Origin: Tagaea sp.
GTDB taxonomy: Bacteria > Pseudomonadota > Alphaproteobacteria > CACIAM-22H2
Direction of reading: 5' to 3'
Length of the DNA stretch: 64,000 bases
Assembly (NCBI GenBank): GCA_965279525.1
Contig: CBDIIB010000005.1
Location: 96,001-160,000, forward strand
A model generated the notes under the pieces. That model did no database searches and was not told the DNA's origin. It saw nothing but the letters and a program-made list of their open reading frames with translations. Positions 44,503 to 52,521 of this stretch are shown here, piece by piece; within the stretch, counting starts at the first letter, position 1, and each line of letters begins with the position of its first letter. A program made the translations under genes and the position numbers.

Positions 44503-44579
44503 TGGCGCGCCCGAAGAGATTCGAACTCCTAACCCTCAGATCCGTAGTCTGATGCTCTATCCAGTTGAGCTACGGGCGC
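44503..44579 (-). tRNA. tRNA-Arg(ACG)
   Basis: GCGCCCGTAGCTCAACTGGATAGAGCATCAGACTACGGATCTGAGGGTTAGGAGTTCGAATCTCTTCGGGCGCGCCA; 77 nt, anticodon ACG, encoded CCA. Confidence 0.98.
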
Positions 44580-47502: not shown

Positions 47503-49986
47503 CTAGACCGCCCGCGCGAGCGGCCCGCTGACCAGCGTCTCGAACGCGCGCGCCATCCGGCCGGCATCGATCCGCGACTTGGCGCGCAGGCGCGCAGGCT
47601 CGCCGGCGCGCAAAGCGGCCAGTTCGCCGGGCGACGCGGCCAGCCGAACCGCTTCGGCCACGAACGATCCGTCGCTTTCGTGCGCGAGGCCGGGCCGTCC
47701 CGTCGCCGCCGCGAGCCACCGTCCGATCCGGCCGAGGCTGGTCGGCCCGACCCGGCTCACGACCGGCATGCCCAGGTGCAGGGCTTCGAACAGCGTCGTG
47801 CCGCCTGCGACCGGAAAGGTGCCGAGCACGATGTCGATATTCGAATAGCCGGCGAGATAGCCCGGCCAGCCGAAATGGTAGCGGATGTCGACGCGCGCGG
47901 GATCGATTCCGCAACGCGCGAACTGCGCGCGCACGCGGGCCGTCGCCGTCGGCTCGTCGGCCAGGCCGTTGCCCAGATAGAGACGCGAACCGGGTACGGC
48001 ATGCAGCACCGTGGCCCACAGCGCCACGCAAGCGTCGCTGATCTTGTAGAGGTTCGACAGCGATCCGAAGGTCGGATAGCCGTTCGCCAGCATCGGCGGC
48101 GGGCCGACGGGCGGCAGGCGCATGCCCTGCCCTTCCCAGGTCTCGGGTGCGAACACGTAGAGATCGCCCGGCAACCGCGCCAGACGGCCCGGGAAAGCCG
48201 CGTCGAGTTCCGGCGGATAGAGCGTGTCGGGTCCGATCGCCGCGTCGAAACAGGGATCGAGACTGGGTCCCGACATGTTGAACCAAGTCGCCTGCACCGG
48301 TGCCGGCCGATGGGCCACGCATGCCGGCGAATAGGGGGCGAGCGAGTCGTCGAGATCGACGAGCACGTCGAGTTCGCGCGCGGCGAGCGCTTCGTGCGCC
48401 TTCGTCCACGCCGGCGGCCTGTCCGCCGTCTCCGGCGACAGGACGCCGAGCTCGCGCACCGCGATCCGCGCCGGCAGCGCCTGGCGGATGTTGTCGAGCC
48501 GGTCGCCGAACAGCGACAGCAGCTCGATCTCGAGCGGGCCGTCGGCAAGTGCATGCAGGAACGGGATCATCAGGGCGGTGTAGTTCCGCGAGCCGAAGCA
48601 GCCGCTGACGAAACCCACGCGCGGGCGGGTCCCGCGCGCGGACCGCACCAGCGCTTGTGCCGGCGGGGGCATCAGGGCGCGGATGGTGCGCAGGCCCGCT
48701 TCCTTGGCCAGCGCCACGCTGCGGTCGTCGGCCCCGGTCGCGTACATTTCGAGATTGAGGACCAGACTCGCCACGCGCGGCGGCGGCGGCCCGTCGAAGC
48801 GCACGGCGCGCAGCGTGGCAAGCGCGCCGTCGATGTCGCCCACGCTCGACTGCGCATTCGACACATGCAGGGCGGCCCAGAGCCGCGCGTTGGGATCGCT
48901 TGAGCGCGCCAGCACGTCGCACATCGCGCCCACGCCTTCGGCATCGGCAAGCGAATAGACGACGCGCAGGATCTCGTTGGACAGTTCCGCATCGTCCGGG
49001 CGCGCGGCGACGAGTGCCAGCAGCACGTCGCGGTACGACCGCCGGGAACTTCCCGGGCTGGCGCGCAGGACGCGCAGCAGCCGCGCGCGCACGACCGGGT
49101 CGTCCGGTGCCCGGGCAAGGGCGGCGGCGGCCGGCCCCAATGCCGGCAGGTCGGGCGCGCACCGTGCCAGACAGAAATCCCGCAAGGCCGCGAAGGCGGC
49201 GGCCGGCGCTTCCTGCAGGACGATGTGTCCGGCCTGCGACAGCCGCAGCACGGCGAGGTCGTCGGGCACGCACGCGGCCGCGCGCGTCTCGTCCTCGCGC
49301 GTGAACAGCGCCGTCTGTTCGGTGCCCGTGTCGCCGTCCAGCCGCCCGCCCGTGAGGACGAGCACCCCGCCCGTCGCCGCGACATCGCCAAGGCGCCGCC
49401 ACCAGGCGTCGGGGTCGGCCTCGCGGATGAACCCGTCCCCTTCCATGTACGCCTCGAGGAACGCGTTGGCCCGGTAGCCGGCGATGCCCTTGCGCAGATG
49501 CGCGCGCGCATGCAGCTGTGCGGCGAGGGAAAGCGGCGGATCGACCAGCGCGAATCCGCGCACGCCGGCGAAATCCGGCCGGGCGGCCGCCGCCAGCGCC
49601 ACGATCCCGCCGAACGACTCGCCCAGCAGCAGGACCTCGCGGCCGGCGAGTTCCGCCGCGACGAGATCGGCGACATGGGCCGCGAACACCTCGACGCGCG
49701 CCGACACGGCGGGGCCGCTGCCGTTGAAGCCGGGCATGTCGACGAGCAGCAGGTCGAACGAGTCGGCGAGAAAGCGCGCGACATCGAACAGCGCCGTCGA
49801 CGGACGGAACGTGCCGGCGATGCCGACGATCGCCGGGCGTCCGCGGCCGGCCTTGCCGGTCACGAGAAAGCCGCAGGTCGTCCGTCCGTCGGCCTCGGTG
49901 CGGACCGGACGGATCCATGCCCGGCCGAACGGGACAGGCTGTGCGCGGGCCCGCCGGTCCGGCCTTGGATTCGCGACCTGATGCAA
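47503..49986 (-). CDS. Alpha/beta-hydrolase fused to a GT41 (OGT/SPINDLY-like) glycosyltransferase (start uncertain; TTG 49986 has an SD)
   Basis: DMPGFNGS, GESFGG and AGH (hydrolase); RVGFVS, LDVLVDL, RPAPVQATW, TFGSLSNLYKIS and DIVLGTFPVAGGTTLFEALHLGMPVVS (GT41). Confidence 0.8.
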   Translation of the reverse strand: MHQVANPRPDRRARAQPVPFGRAWIRPVRTEADGRTTCGFLVTGKAGRGRPAIVGIAGTFRPSTALFDVARFLADSFDLLLVDMPGFNGSGPAVSARVEVFAAHVADLVAAELAGREVLLLGESFGGIVALAAAARPDFAGVRGFALVDPPLSLAAQLHARAHLRKGIAGYRANAFLEAYMEGDGFIREADPDAWWRRLGDVAATGGVLVLTGGRLDGDTGTEQTALFTREDETRAAACVPDDLAVLRLSQAGHIVLQEAPAAAFAALRDFCLARCAPDLPALGPAAAALARAPDDPVVRARLLRVLRASPGSSRRSYRDVLLALVAARPDDAELSNEILRVVYSLADAEGVGAMCDVLARSSDPNARLWAALHVSNAQSSVGDIDGALATLRAVRFDGPPPPRVASLVLNLEMYATGADDRSVALAKEAGLRTIRALMPPPAQALVRSARGTRPRVGFVSGCFGSRNYTALMIPFLHALADGPLEIELLSLFGDRLDNIRQALPARIAVRELGVLSPETADRPPAWTKAHEALAARELDVLVDLDDSLAPYSPACVAHRPAPVQATWFNMSGPSLDPCFDAAIGPDTLYPPELDAAFPGRLARLPGDLYVFAPETWEGQGMRLPPVGPPPMLANGYPTFGSLSNLYKISDACVALWATVLHAVPGSRLYLGNGLADEPTATARVRAQFARCGIDPARVDIRYHFGWPGYLAGYSNIDIVLGTFPVAGGTTLFEALHLGMPVVSRVGPTSLGRIGRWLAAATGRPGLAHESDGSFVAEAVRLAASPGELAALRAGEPARLRAKSRIDAGRMARAFETLVSGPLARAV

Positions 49987-50111
49987 TCGAGCCCCTTCAT
50001 CCTGCAGCGCTTCCGAAACGGCAACGCCAGACGCGGATGCTAGGGTGGAAAGCAACCTACAATCAGTTCATAAAAATTCTTTACTTAAAAGTTGTATATG
50101 CATGATATTTC

Positions 50112-50189
50112 TTGAAGTTGTATTCACGGAGTTCTATGTTGGTTCCCATCCGGTCGTGCAAGCGGCCGGTGCGCTGTTTGACAAGTGAA
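50112..50189 (+). promoter_or_regulatory. Sigma70 promoter plus boxB-like GNRA hairpin and boxA-like element
   Basis: AT-rich upstream; TTGAAG(50112)-17 nt-TATGTT(50135); CCGGTCGT-GCAA-GCGGCCGG (50150-50169); GCTGTTTGACAAGTGAA (50173-50189). Confidence 0.6.
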
Positions 50190-50330
50190 AATGACTGTGT
50201 CGGACCCTTGCAACGGTTGCGCCGGGCGCGGTTGCAGTAACATCCGTTGAACTTCAACGGGATAAATACGCTACCGTTGCAGGTTGTAACGCGTTATGGG
50301 TCGACGCACTACAAAACAGCGCGAAAAAAC
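50147..50330 (+). ncRNA. Candidate structured non-coding RNA of unknown family
   Basis: Nested complementary segments 50171-79/50314-22, 50197-207/50298-307, 50209-17/50273-81 and 50244-50/50254-60. Confidence 0.5.
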
Positions 50331-50408
50331 GCGCCGAGGTTACCTTCGTTCCGAATCAAGCGGTTAAACAGGTTACCGTCGCCTGTCGTAACCTGATGAT
50401 TTGCGGGT

Positions 50409-52013
50409 CTAGAACGTCGCCACCTGGCCGTCGCTGCGCGGGTCGGTCGCCCCTTCGAGCAACGCTTGGCCGCCGTCCTTGGCGGGCGTGCGCACGATCA
50501 TGCCGGCGTGGCCCATCAGGTCGGTGAAGTCGGGGGCGACTTCCAGATCGTGGCCCATGCCGCGCAACGCCGCGATGGTGCCGGCGGGGAAGCGGCTTTC
50601 GAGGCGCAGCTTCGTGGTGGCCGTTCCCCAGGTGCGGCCGAGCAGCCAGCGCGGCGCCGTCACCGCTTCCTGCGGCGCCATGCCGTAGAAGGCGTAGCGC
50701 GAGAACACCATGGCTTGCGTCTGCGGCTGGCCGTCGCCGCCCATCGTGCCGTAGACCATGCCGCGCCCGTCGTCGAAGCGCGCCATCGCGGGGTTGAGCG
50801 TGTGGAACGGCTTGCGGCCGGGACTGAGTTCCTGTGCCGCCCCCTTCTCCAGCGAGAACGACGTGCCGCGGTTCTGGAACAGGATGCCGGTGTCGCGCCC
50901 GACCACGCCCGAGCCGAACTCCCAGTAGATCGACTGGATGAAGCTCGCCATGCGGCCTTGCGCATCGATGCAGCCCATCCAGATCGTGTCGCCCTTCTTG
51001 GACGGCTGCGGCCACGGGGCGGCGAGATTCGGGTCGAACTCGGCGGCAAGCCTGGCGATGCGTGGCTCGGCGAGCAGGCTCTGCGCCTCCACATCCATGA
51101 AGGCCGGGTCCTTGACGTGCCGGTCGCGCACGCGGAAGGCAAGCTTGGTCGCCTCGACGAGCGCATGCACGTATTGCGGGCCGTCGCACGTTTCGGGTTT
51201 GAAGCGCGAGAACAGCGCCAGGATCAGCAATGCCGCCAGCCCCTGCGTGGGCGGCGTCATGTTGAAGAGCCGGGCGCCGGGCACGCCGACGGTCAATGGT
51301 GTTACCAGTTTGGCCTTGTGCCGGCGGTAGTCGTCGAGCGTCACCGGGCTGCCGGCGCGCGCAAGATCGGCCGCGATCGCCTCGGCAAGGCCGCCGCGAT
51401 AGAAGCTCTCGGTGCCCTCGCGCCCGATGCGGCGCAGCGTCTCGGCCAACGCCGCCTGCACGAAGCGCGTGCCCGGCTGCGGCACGGTGCCGCCCGGCAG
51501 GAACGCGGCGGCGAAGCCGGGGGCGGCCTCGCACTCCGCGCGTTTCTCGGTCGTGAAGCGCGTCTGGCTTTCGGTCGCGGGGAAGCCGTTCGCGGCGTAG
51601 AAGGCGCCGGGTTCGACGAGGCGCGAAAGCGGCAGCTTGCCGCCCAGCGTGCGCGACATCTCGAACGCCGCCCCCCAGCCCGACACGGTCCCGGCAACAG
51701 TGTTGGCCGCAAGGGGCCCGCGCGACGGGATCGTCTTGTGGCCCTGCTTCTTGTACCAGTCGGGCGAGATCGCGGAAGCCGCCGCCCCGCATGCATCGAT
51801 GCCCACGGGCTTGCCGTCGCCGCCATCGACCAGCCAGAAGCCGTCGCCGCCGATCGCGTTCATGTGCGGATAGACGACCGGGATCGTGGCCGCCATCGCG
51901 ATCATCGCCTCGAGCGCGTTGCCGCCCTCGCGCAGCACGTCGAGCCCGGCCTGCGAGGCCAGATGGTGGGGAGCGGTCGCCATGCCGCGATAGCCGCGCG
52001 GGGTGCTGAGCAT
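50409..52013 (-). CDS. Gamma-glutamyltransferase family protein, cytoplasmic HpxW/oxamate amidohydrolase-like
   Basis: VYPHMNAIGGDGFW; PPTQG; GDTIW (catalytic Thr); QSIYWEFGSG; PFHTLNP; GTMGGDGQPQ; DPRSDG. Confidence 0.9.
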   Translation of the reverse strand: MLSTPRGYRGMATAPHHLASQAGLDVLREGGNALEAMIAMAATIPVVYPHMNAIGGDGFWLVDGGDGKPVGIDACGAAASAISPDWYKKQGHKTIPSRGPLAANTVAGTVSGWGAAFEMSRTLGGKLPLSRLVEPGAFYAANGFPATESQTRFTTEKRAECEAAPGFAAAFLPGGTVPQPGTRFVQAALAETLRRIGREGTESFYRGGLAEAIAADLARAGSPVTLDDYRRHKAKLVTPLTVGVPGARLFNMTPPTQGLAALLILALFSRFKPETCDGPQYVHALVEATKLAFRVRDRHVKDPAFMDVEAQSLLAEPRIARLAAEFDPNLAAPWPQPSKKGDTIWMGCIDAQGRMASFIQSIYWEFGSGVVGRDTGILFQNRGTSFSLEKGAAQELSPGRKPFHTLNPAMARFDDGRGMVYGTMGGDGQPQTQAMVFSRYAFYGMAPQEAVTAPRWLLGRTWGTATTKLRLESRFPAGTIAALRGMGHDLEVAPDFTDLMGHAGMIVRTPAKDGGQALLEGATDPRSDGQVATF

Positions 52014-52083
52014 GTGCCTGCCTTTGCCTGTGCTTGCTTTTGGAGCGGAGAGGTCTACGCTTTTCCTATCGGAGGGTCCGGCG

Positions 52084-52521
52084 ATGCGCAAAGAGTTTCT
52101 GGCCGCTTTCGTGGCGCTTTTCTGGGCTTTCGCCGCCCAAGCGCAGGGCATCCCGGCCCAGCGGATTCCCGACGCCGACGGCGCCGCGATCCGCTCGACG
52201 ATCGAACGCCAGGTCGACGCCTTCCGCGCCGACGACGGCGAGCGCGCCTTCGCCTTCGCCGACGACAACATCCGCGCGATGTTCGGCGATTCCGCCCGCT
52301 TCATGGCGATGGTGCGCGAGGGCTACGCGATGATCTACCGGCCGCGCGGCTTCGTCTTCGGCGAGGCCGAGGAGCGCGGCGACATCGTGGCGCAGATCGT
52401 CGAGTTCGACGGGCTCGACGGCACGTCGGCCGTCTTCCTCTACGAGATGCGCCGCCAGCCGGACGGCGGCTTCCGCATCGCCGGCGTCTATTTGTTGCGC
52501 GCACGCCGTCCGAGCGTCTAG
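52084..52521 (+). CDS. DUF4864 secreted protein
   Basis: Signal peptide; IERQVDAFRADD..AFAFA; FMAMVREGY. Confidence 0.85.
   Translation: MRKEFLAAFVALFWAFAAQAQGIPAQRIPDADGAAIRSTIERQVDAFRADDGERAFAFADDNIRAMFGDSARFMAMVREGYAMIYRPRGFVFGEAEERGDIVAQIVEFDGLDGTSAVFLYEMRRQPDGGFRIAGVYLLRARRPSV

Follow-up and report, generated by a model that had tools for sequence, protein, structure and literature searches.

The DNA considered in the present work (hereinafter, the window) is a stretch of 64,000 nucleotides (nt) from Tagaea sp. (GenBank assembly GCA_965279525.1, contig CBDIIB010000005.1, positions 96,001 to 160,000), and the element in question is a unit located at positions 50112-50404 of its + strand, in a spacer next to a convergent gamma-glutamyltranspeptidase (GGT) gene. 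The unit is a member of a dispersed family, with 41 modules in 35 loci of the same genome. Direct observations are the family itself and how it is conserved, the identity between its boxA and that of the ribosomal RNA (rrn) operon, the covariation of its hairpins and the bias in its position relative to neighboring genes. In the reading that we favor, and that we hold with as much doubt as belief, the family would represent a genus-restricted, multi-copy set of small structured RNAs that are led by boxA and transcribed independently, and that may share their 3' hairpin region with the convergent gene.

Architecture of the family

Probing the whole genome (4.35 Mb, 5 contigs) with positions 50060-50410 by BLAST retrieved 18 matches, and the hits of an iterated nhmmer search rose from 15 to 33; two profiles, one built on the 5' leader and the other on the 3' module, resulted in 29 leader hits and 41 module hits, defining 35 loci. 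A leader was detectable upstream of the module(s) in 24 of the 35 loci, and six of the 35, including that of the window, harbor two modules after one leader. The first-pass annotation had described the locus as an "orphan", "stand-alone" element, which is wrong, the locus being one of 35, and as a single "multi-stem RNA", which actually corresponds to two tandem copies of a repeated module of about 98 nt.

Module 1 (50205-50302, + strand) scores 73.2 bits with R1, the covariance model of the module; it has conserved internal stems and a degenerate terminal hairpin, the hairpin search having found no P4 there. Module 2 (50307-50404, + strand; 74.1 bits) comprises the ACAAA sequence, the hairpins P2 and P3, an A-rich stretch, and the hairpin P4. 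More generally, from 5' to 3', a unit begins with an A/T-rich stretch, a -35-like box (CTTGAC or CTTGAA), about 17 nt, and a -10-like hexamer; these are followed by the P0 hairpin (in many copies), the leader motif, and a variable stretch, at times with a long extra hairpin; the module, in turn, consists of ACAAA, P2 with a loop that is A-rich or GNRA-like, P3 with a motif of the AACUUCAA type in its loop, an A-rich stretch, and P4, and a moderately T-rich tail comes after it. In the window, P4 (50369-50395, + strand) is formed by CAGGTTAC (50369-76, 5' arm) and GTAACCTG (50388-95, 3' arm), is followed by ATGATTTG, and ends 14 nt before the stop codon of the GGT gene; it is 93.6% paired in six orthologues.

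Arrays of hexamers with a period of 10-11 nt were observed after P4 at the loci C4:1061120, C2:231250, C5:483874, and C5:1142118 of the same genome, the hexamer being uniform inside each locus and different between loci. As for CRISPR arrays, with direct repeats of 24-48 nt and spacers, none was recognized, since the loci hold only one or two modules of about 98 nt and these hexamer repeats. Moreover, another dispersed repeat that bears no relation to the family, a GC-rich palindrome (CCCTCTCCC...GGGAGAGGG) of about 85 nt, was found at G000:C5:1471400-1471545 (G000 being the genome of the window) and in many other places; it adjoins several family loci and occurs in about 8-15 places in each of the congeneric genomes G012, G019, and G011.

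The boxA leader and the promoter-like region

The boxA-like leader motif (50171-50193, + strand, with a core 11-mer at 50173-50183) is invariant in six orthologues, and the pattern of its 11-mer occurs once in the window, where 0.08 occurrences are expected. The sole assembled 16S gene of the genome (G000:C5:1864411-1865901, + strand) has a boxA in its leader, 226 nt upstream (G000:C5:1864185), and a second one in the 16S-23S spacer (C5:1866420). The family leader profile matches both of them, on the rRNA strand, as well as a second copy of the spacer boxA at the start of contig C2, and the difference between the rrn boxA pair and the family leader motif is no greater than that among the family members. 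Hence, the likeness to the rrn boxA of the genome, on which the first-pass description of the leader depended, holds for both the leader and the spacer copies and in the same orientation. With respect to the gammaproteobacterial consensus GYTCTTTAANA (PMC5725501), the family boxA departs by a G at position 8, and the rrn boxA of the genome has the same G.

The exact pattern GCTSTTTGAMA was found 33 times in the genome, vs. five times for the reversed control; 26 of these matches are family leaders, three belong to rrn sequences, and four lie elsewhere. Among the congeners, G019 and G011, which harbor the family, have 28 and 38 matches (controls 3 and 3), and G018, G001, and G009, which lack it, have 2, 3, and 4 (controls 9, 6, and 11). 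In the two complete congener genomes, only one boxA pair about 2.2 kb apart was found in each (G011:C1:4014546/4016782 and G019:C1:1775405/1777640), with the spacing of the rrn leader and spacer boxA described above; this suggests that these two congeners may possess a single rrn operon beside 25-35 other boxA sites.

Upstream of the leader motif, a promoter-like region (50111-50140, + strand) is composed of CTTGAA(G), 17 nt, and CTATGT/TATGTT, that is, the hexamers TTGAAG (50112-17) and TATGTT (50135-40), about 25-30 nt 5' of boxA; it may match a housekeeping promoter consensus of Alphaproteobacteria. All six orthologues agree in the sequence CTTGAAGTTG and, in the second hexamer, in the C, the A, and the T. 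Directly before boxA, in a boxB-like position, lies the P0 hairpin with its GCAA loop (CCGGTCGT/GCAA/GCGGCCGG, 50150-50169, + strand), whose sequence differs among orthologues and paralogues. Both the promoter hexamers and the hairpin preceding boxA, already singled out in the first reading of the locus, turned out to be conserved among orthologues.

Promoter-like modules were also found 5' of the leaders at other family loci. At least three promoter types precede one kind of leader (e.g., G000:C5:1471400-1471450 and C4:174720-174760); one of them has a GGAAC..GTTCC palindrome between the hexamers, and another a TCCTAT.ATAGGA palindrome, and such palindromes look like operators for different regulators. 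CsrA-type GGA motifs, LexA- and CtrA-like boxes, and the assignment of the promoters to a sigma factor were viewed by eye and dropped as unsupported. Lastly, the conserved P3-loop motif AACTTCAA (50251-50258) is the reverse complement of TTGAAGTT in the -35 region of the same unit (50112-50119), which is probably due to chance, the 8-mer occurring 95 times on the two strands of the genome.

Structure and covariation

The strings listed in the first-pass annotation are all where it placed them, the range of the last hairpin being off by one base: GCGCTGTTT (50171-79) and its partner AAACAGCGC (50314-22), GTGTC and GACCC with their partners GGGTC and GACGC, TGCAACGGT (50209-17) and ACCGTTGCA (50273-81), the CCGTTGA/TCAACGG hairpin within 50244-60, and the palindrome within 50287-96. 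In six orthologues, the nested stems so defined are paired in 82.4% of the cells, vs. 32-50% when the 3' partners are slid, with the caveat that the structure was taken from one of the six, which favors it over the slid versions. Seven of their pairs changed on both sides, five of which are in the GTGTC/GACCC helix; the long-range helix between boxA and 50314-22 is 85% paired with zero compensatory change. The + strand of 50147-50400 was also predicted to fold more stably than shuffled sequences (-99.1 kcal/mol vs. -83.3 +/- 4.6, z -3.41, none of 200 as good); the - strand of the same region gave a z of -2.77, with two of 200 shuffles as good.

The family alignments extend these data. Among the modules of the genome of the window (n = 24), P4 is paired at 82.6% and P3 at 68.3%. 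In 57 distinct modules of several species, aligned on the model structure, P3 and P4 together are paired in 76.6% of the cells (30-45% if slid), 12 of their 16 pairs show double changes, and none of 500 shuffles attains the observed covariation; the arms of P4 co-vary by sub-type, with GGTTAC/GTAACC being replaced by GGAGAC/GTCTCC or GTTGAC/GTCAAC. Similarly, in 50 distinct leaders, aligned in the same way, double changes occur in all eight pairs of P0, with 71.6% of the cells paired vs. 31-51% if slid and a covariation of 0.181 vs. 0.076 in shuffled alignments, a value attained by none of 500.

On the + strand, P0 has 30 G.U pairs and 14 A.C ones, the corresponding figures for P3/P4 being 56 and 33. 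Since G.U pairs fit only a + strand RNA and exceed A.C, these counts support the + strand as the putative RNA strand where the leader is concerned; in the case of the 3' hairpins, the strand indicated by the same count is ambiguous. The search for pairing between the modules and the rrn region gave, as the best result, a 10-mer common to five copies, which is at chance level.

No known Rfam family, including 6S, tmRNA, RNase P, SRP, and the small RNAs of Alphaproteobacteria, was found at the unit, either in the locus of the window or in 20 other family loci, in line with the failure of the first reading to assign it to a known RNA. In the whole window, at gathering score, the sole match is a tRNA gene (44506-44579, - strand), outside the unit; lowering the threshold to E 10 over positions 49900-50600 retrieved nothing meaningful, and every match in the 20 other loci is at least 25 bits under its gathering score. 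Concerning the short open reading frames (ORFs) of the locus, no frame is kept across orthologues, and the 1-nt indels that break it among them rule out a reading frame conserved in the family locus. A cis-regulatory 5' leader or riboswitch would be expected to have a same-strand gene directly 3' of it, and none is present in 25 of the 35 loci, including that of the window.

Distribution and inheritance

BLAST probing with positions 50100-50400 retrieved matches in 13 of 20 genomes of the same genus and in none of 20 genomes belonging to other genera. Scanning the collection of named genomes with a pattern yielded 15 loci, all from Tagaea sp. assemblies or from one "uncultured Azospirillum sp.". 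The covariance model R1 was positive in 14 of the 20 congeners, with 10-29 matches each (25 in the genome of the window), and gave no match in 29 genomes from 14 other genera of the same family; its hits number about 317 overall. Most of the element-bearing congeners have 16-29 modules, the value of 10 coming from one assembly that is 84% complete; the six R1-negative congeners are those whose GGT gene is the least similar to that of the window (80-81% identity).

At the GGT locus, the element is present downstream of the stop codon in 10 of the 21 genomes of the genus, with one or two modules. In G006 (L084), a boxA leader located about 100 nt past the stop codon is followed by about seven tandem units of a different hexamer with an 11-nt period instead of the usual module; in the other 10 genomes, the place is taken by ordinary GC-rich terminators or by other genes. 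In the alignments of the orthologues, the likeness starts exactly at the -35 box, and nothing aligns upstream of it. Three of the four loci examined are orthologous in relatives, namely the GGT locus, C5:1471265, and C4:422073. In detail, out of five relatives, G012 shows orthology of the C5:1471265 locus across the whole element and G019 shows it in part, with the neighboring gene alone being matched in G007 and G011 and no match in G005; the C4:422073 locus is orthologous, with the element, in four of five; and the flanks of the fourth locus (C4:212044) lie 3-5 kb apart in relatives, with the element nearby.

The identity among 26 modules of the genome reaches 0.81 at most (median 0.57), and that between the two window modules and their orthologues amounts to 0.62-0.90. 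Terminal inverted repeats are absent from 22 full units, as judged from an end-to-end local score of 6.9 vs. 6.6 in shuffled sequences. The orthology of the loci, the absence of near-identical paralogues, and the absence of inverted-repeat ends indicate, from the sequence comparisons, that the family is old and vertically inherited, with no recent mobility.

Genomic context and convergent genes

According to the ORF listing of the window, the unit lies in an intergenic spacer (50056-50408) whose flanking genes are both on the - strand. The GGT gene (50409-52304, - strand; Pfam G_glu_transpept, E 6.9e-125) is thus convergent to the unit, as the first-pass annotation had reported. On the other side, a divergent ORF of 850 aa (47503-50055, - strand), whose start codon is uncertain, has an alpha/beta-hydrolase match in its N-terminal part and a GT41-like (O-GlcNAc-transferase-type) match in its C-terminal part; its left flank is without synteny to the GGT locus of relatives. 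The AT-rich tract separating this ORF from the unit (50056-50111) was also confirmed, having a GC content of 0.25; it is not alignable with the orthologous loci and may be UP-element-like or the site of a divergent promoter. The GC content of the spacer outside the tract is 0.53, and that of the flanking genes is 0.70-0.72. Overall, the first reading of this single locus was largely right, with the exception of its being an orphan.

Across the family, 25 of the 35 loci have a convergent gene downstream of the unit, and at 20 of the 35, no more than 30 nt separate the end of P4 from the stop codon of that gene; these counts derive from a crude ORF finder using third-position GC rather than from annotation. 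We checked the products of 20 convergent genes, which include 19 of the 20 closest-abutting ones (the GGT gene of the window being typed apart) plus one at 40 nt: 16 have Pfam matches, each to a different family, and four have none. They comprise a GGDEF-EAL protein, RNase J, SoxZ, a dCTP deaminase, TctA, a MiaB-like enzyme, an RF-1-family release factor, malate synthase, HemN, and a CN-hydrolase-family protein, and no functional theme common to these 20 genes emerged from Pfam.

The sole terminator-like site called in the region 49800-50700 is on the - strand (50317-50336) and consists of the P2 hairpin of module 2 followed, on that strand, by a T run; it would be a terminator-like site for the GGT transcript. 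Under a relaxed rule (4 T in 8), P2 is terminator-like on the - strand in 12 of the 41 modules, including this one, and the P4 of the window is terminator-like under this rule only. A two-way sharing of hairpins between a small RNA and the convergent gene is therefore plausible, albeit weakly supported.

A possible mechanism and its difficulties

On the basis of the rRNA operons and of suhB (PMC5725501, PMC12360218), on which the steps from boxA to Nus loading and Rho resistance are modeled, the following scenario can be depicted. RNA polymerase would start near 50147-50148, and the boxA of the nascent transcript would recruit NusB/NusE and the other Nus factors, as occurs for rRNA; the Nus-bound elongation through an untranslated, structured RNA would then resist Rho. 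The transcript might end at P4 or close to it, shortly before the stop codon of the convergent gene, and the P4 region (P2 at some loci) would double as the 3' end of the gene on the opposite strand, so that the small RNA and the 3' untranslated region (UTR) of the convergent gene would be mutually complementary. Transcription, Nus loading, termination, and any regulatory role are what we infer from the data reported above.

Several points weigh against this scenario. The sigma-70 scan calls no promoter here, the hexamers having eight of 12 matches where the rule needs nine; 11 of the 35 loci are without a profile-detected boxA leader, and 10 have a co-directional downstream gene. The whole P0 hairpin is present in only 21 of the 50 leaders, and the best stem upstream of the 29 leader hits of the genome does not exceed in length (5.7) that of shuffled sequences (5.1) or of the opposite strand (5.7). 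The fitting of the 57 modules and of the 50 leaders to the model structure favors their pairing; RNAalifold, for its part, returned no consensus structure on 24 family modules and just a five-pair hairpin on a plain alignment of 32 family sequences. Under the relaxed rule, P4 is terminator-like in 14 of the 41 modules on the + strand and in nine on the - strand. Furthermore, a transcript of 150-260 nt would hardly need protection from Rho, which leaves the use of boxA unexplained.

The contigs of the runs X20, X21, X22, and X8, compared over 49800-50800 at 80% likeness, come from relatives. The RNA runs matched only 0.06-0.19 of the sampled words; four runs that contained the stretch are of unclear kind and probably represent DNA of the source organism. 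In the plankton RNA-seq library X22, a 419-nt contig of a relative, with a depth of about 5, spans 50165-50433, thus covering the 3' end of the GGT gene, both modules, and boxA, and it may derive from DNA carry-over. Such contigs reveal neither strand, nor ends, nor level, and they are neutral on transcription.

Alternative explanations

Three other explanations were considered, which are not mutually exclusive with the favored reading. The units might be the relic of a mobile intergenic repeat, similar to REP or to miniature inverted-repeat transposable elements (MITEs), which spread once in the ancestor of part of the genus and has no present RNA function; the promoter and boxA would have hitch-hiked with it, the latter perhaps after capture from an rrn leader. 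The copies are indeed dispersed, strictly intergenic, and, like REP sequences, near gene 3' ends, their GC content is 0.53 vs. 0.66-0.67 for the contigs, and their 3' part is palindromic and accompanied by tandem hexamers with a 10-11-nt period, locally expanded (G006, G013); the absence of the family from the six most distant congeners would, in turn, fit a single burst. We nevertheless consider this origin unlikely, given that the units have neither terminal inverted repeats nor near-identical copies, that their loci have orthologues in other species and can be aligned even where the surrounding non-coding DNA cannot, that the hairpins are kept by compensatory changes, and that boxA is invariant in the orthologues; moreover, no transposase was noticed nearby, although no systematic search for one was carried out.

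The function might instead reside on the - strand, with the module representing a 3'-UTR or terminator element of the convergent genes, acting in a REP-like manner in the formation or stabilization of their 3' ends, and with the promoter and boxA of the + strand being secondary. This would account for the stop codons lying so close to P4 in 20 of the 35 loci, for the T-rich stretches that follow P4 in nine and P2 in 12 of the 41 modules, and for the only site called in the window region being the P2 hairpin and T run of the - strand; the convergent genes are unrelated, as expected for a generic 3'-end element, and the ratio of G.U to A.C in P3/P4 is only 56 to 33. It would leave unexplained, however, why a conserved promoter-like region, P0, and an rrn-identical boxA occur in one orientation at 24-26 loci and why 10 of the 35 loci have a co-directional downstream gene, and the element-free congeners end their GGT gene with ordinary GC-rich terminators; we regard such a function as quite improbable. 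We give even less credit, and very little overall, to the idea that the units are Rho-resistant antisense promoters, in which the boxA-modified polymerase would pass a weak P4 and enter the convergent gene, the long antisense RNA or the interference so produced tuning that gene or insulating its neighbors. That the units aim at a convergent 3' end in 25 of the 35 loci, that P4, judged by the usual criteria, is weak as a terminator, and that antisense transcription is suppressed mainly by Rho, which boxA-bound Nus factors block (PMC12360218), are consistent with it; on the other hand, the targets include housekeeping genes (the RF-1-family release factor, RNase J, and the CN-hydrolase-family protein) with no common theme, and the conserved and covarying 3' hairpin points to a defined 3' end.

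Comparison with known systems

If the favored reading of boxA-led small RNAs is considered, the closest counterpart of the unit is the rrn antitermination leader (boxB-boxA-boxC, the loading site of the rrnTAC). The family boxA equals the rrn boxA variants of the same genome, and, as in the rrn leader, it lies about 25 nt past a promoter-like region, often with a hairpin before it and an untranslated structured RNA after it; unlike the rrn leader, the family unit is without rRNA, ends in a hairpin after 150-260 nt, and is represented by about 26 leaders per genome vs. one or two rrn operons. The leaders of CRISPR arrays also carry a boxA upstream of an untranslated or poorly translated transcript. 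The same holds true for the 5' UTR of suhB (PMC5725501). Both of them are single loci tied to a gene or to an array, whereas the family is a dispersed set of short units, without cas genes or CRISPR repeats.

REP/BIME, ERIC, and the Correia elements of Neisseria are dispersed, intergenic, and palindromic sequences, often near gene 3' ends and restricted to a genus or a family. The units resemble them in being dispersed, intergenic, palindrome-bearing, and taxon-restricted, and differ from them in having orthologous loci and a directional promoter and boxA, with no terminal inverted repeats and no near-identical copies. As regards small RNAs, that of the GadY-gadX pair is cis-encoded and overlaps the 3' end of a convergent gene, and Sib and QUAD are repeat-encoded small-RNA families. 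Like GadY, the putative small RNA gene abuts the 3' end of a convergent gene and, like Sib and QUAD, it is present in many paralogous copies; unlike all of them, it occurs in 35 loci beside unrelated genes, has a boxA leader, and shows no conserved small ORF on the opposite strand.

A full-text literature search retrieved no description of a boxA-led small-RNA family and no RNA work on this genus, and the boxA survey of PMC5725501 left out non-coding RNAs. The building blocks (boxA leaders, intergenic repeats, and small RNAs abutting gene 3' ends) are of known kinds, and their combination looks new.

Biological significance

In the literature consulted (PMC5725501, PMC12360218, PMC11109978), the cases of boxA/Nus antitermination are rRNA operons, lambdoid phages, and a small number of single loci, suhB among them. 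About 35 short non-coding units per genome, most of which open with the rrn boxA of the same genome, would widen the known use of this signal. That 25-35 small RNA genes per genome might carry the ribosomal antitermination signal in one clade of one alphaproteobacterial genus, in which one or two rrn operons are apparent, is a proposition that we judge quite improbable.

The family represents a natural test set for what boxA does on short structured RNAs, be it protection from Rho, an aid to folding, or the titration of Nus factors. Moreover, the abutment of the units to unrelated convergent stop codons raises the testable question of how, in a GC-rich genome, hairpins come to be common to small RNA genes and to the 3' ends of mRNAs. 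If the units were strongly transcribed, they would constitute a new class of Nus-factor-dependent small RNAs. They could, in turn, compete with rRNA synthesis for NusB, S10, and SuhB, in which case the family would be a boxA sponge linking the activity of many promoters to the production of ribosomes, and the units could also be Rho-proof antisense partners for dozens of unrelated genes, at their 3' ends.

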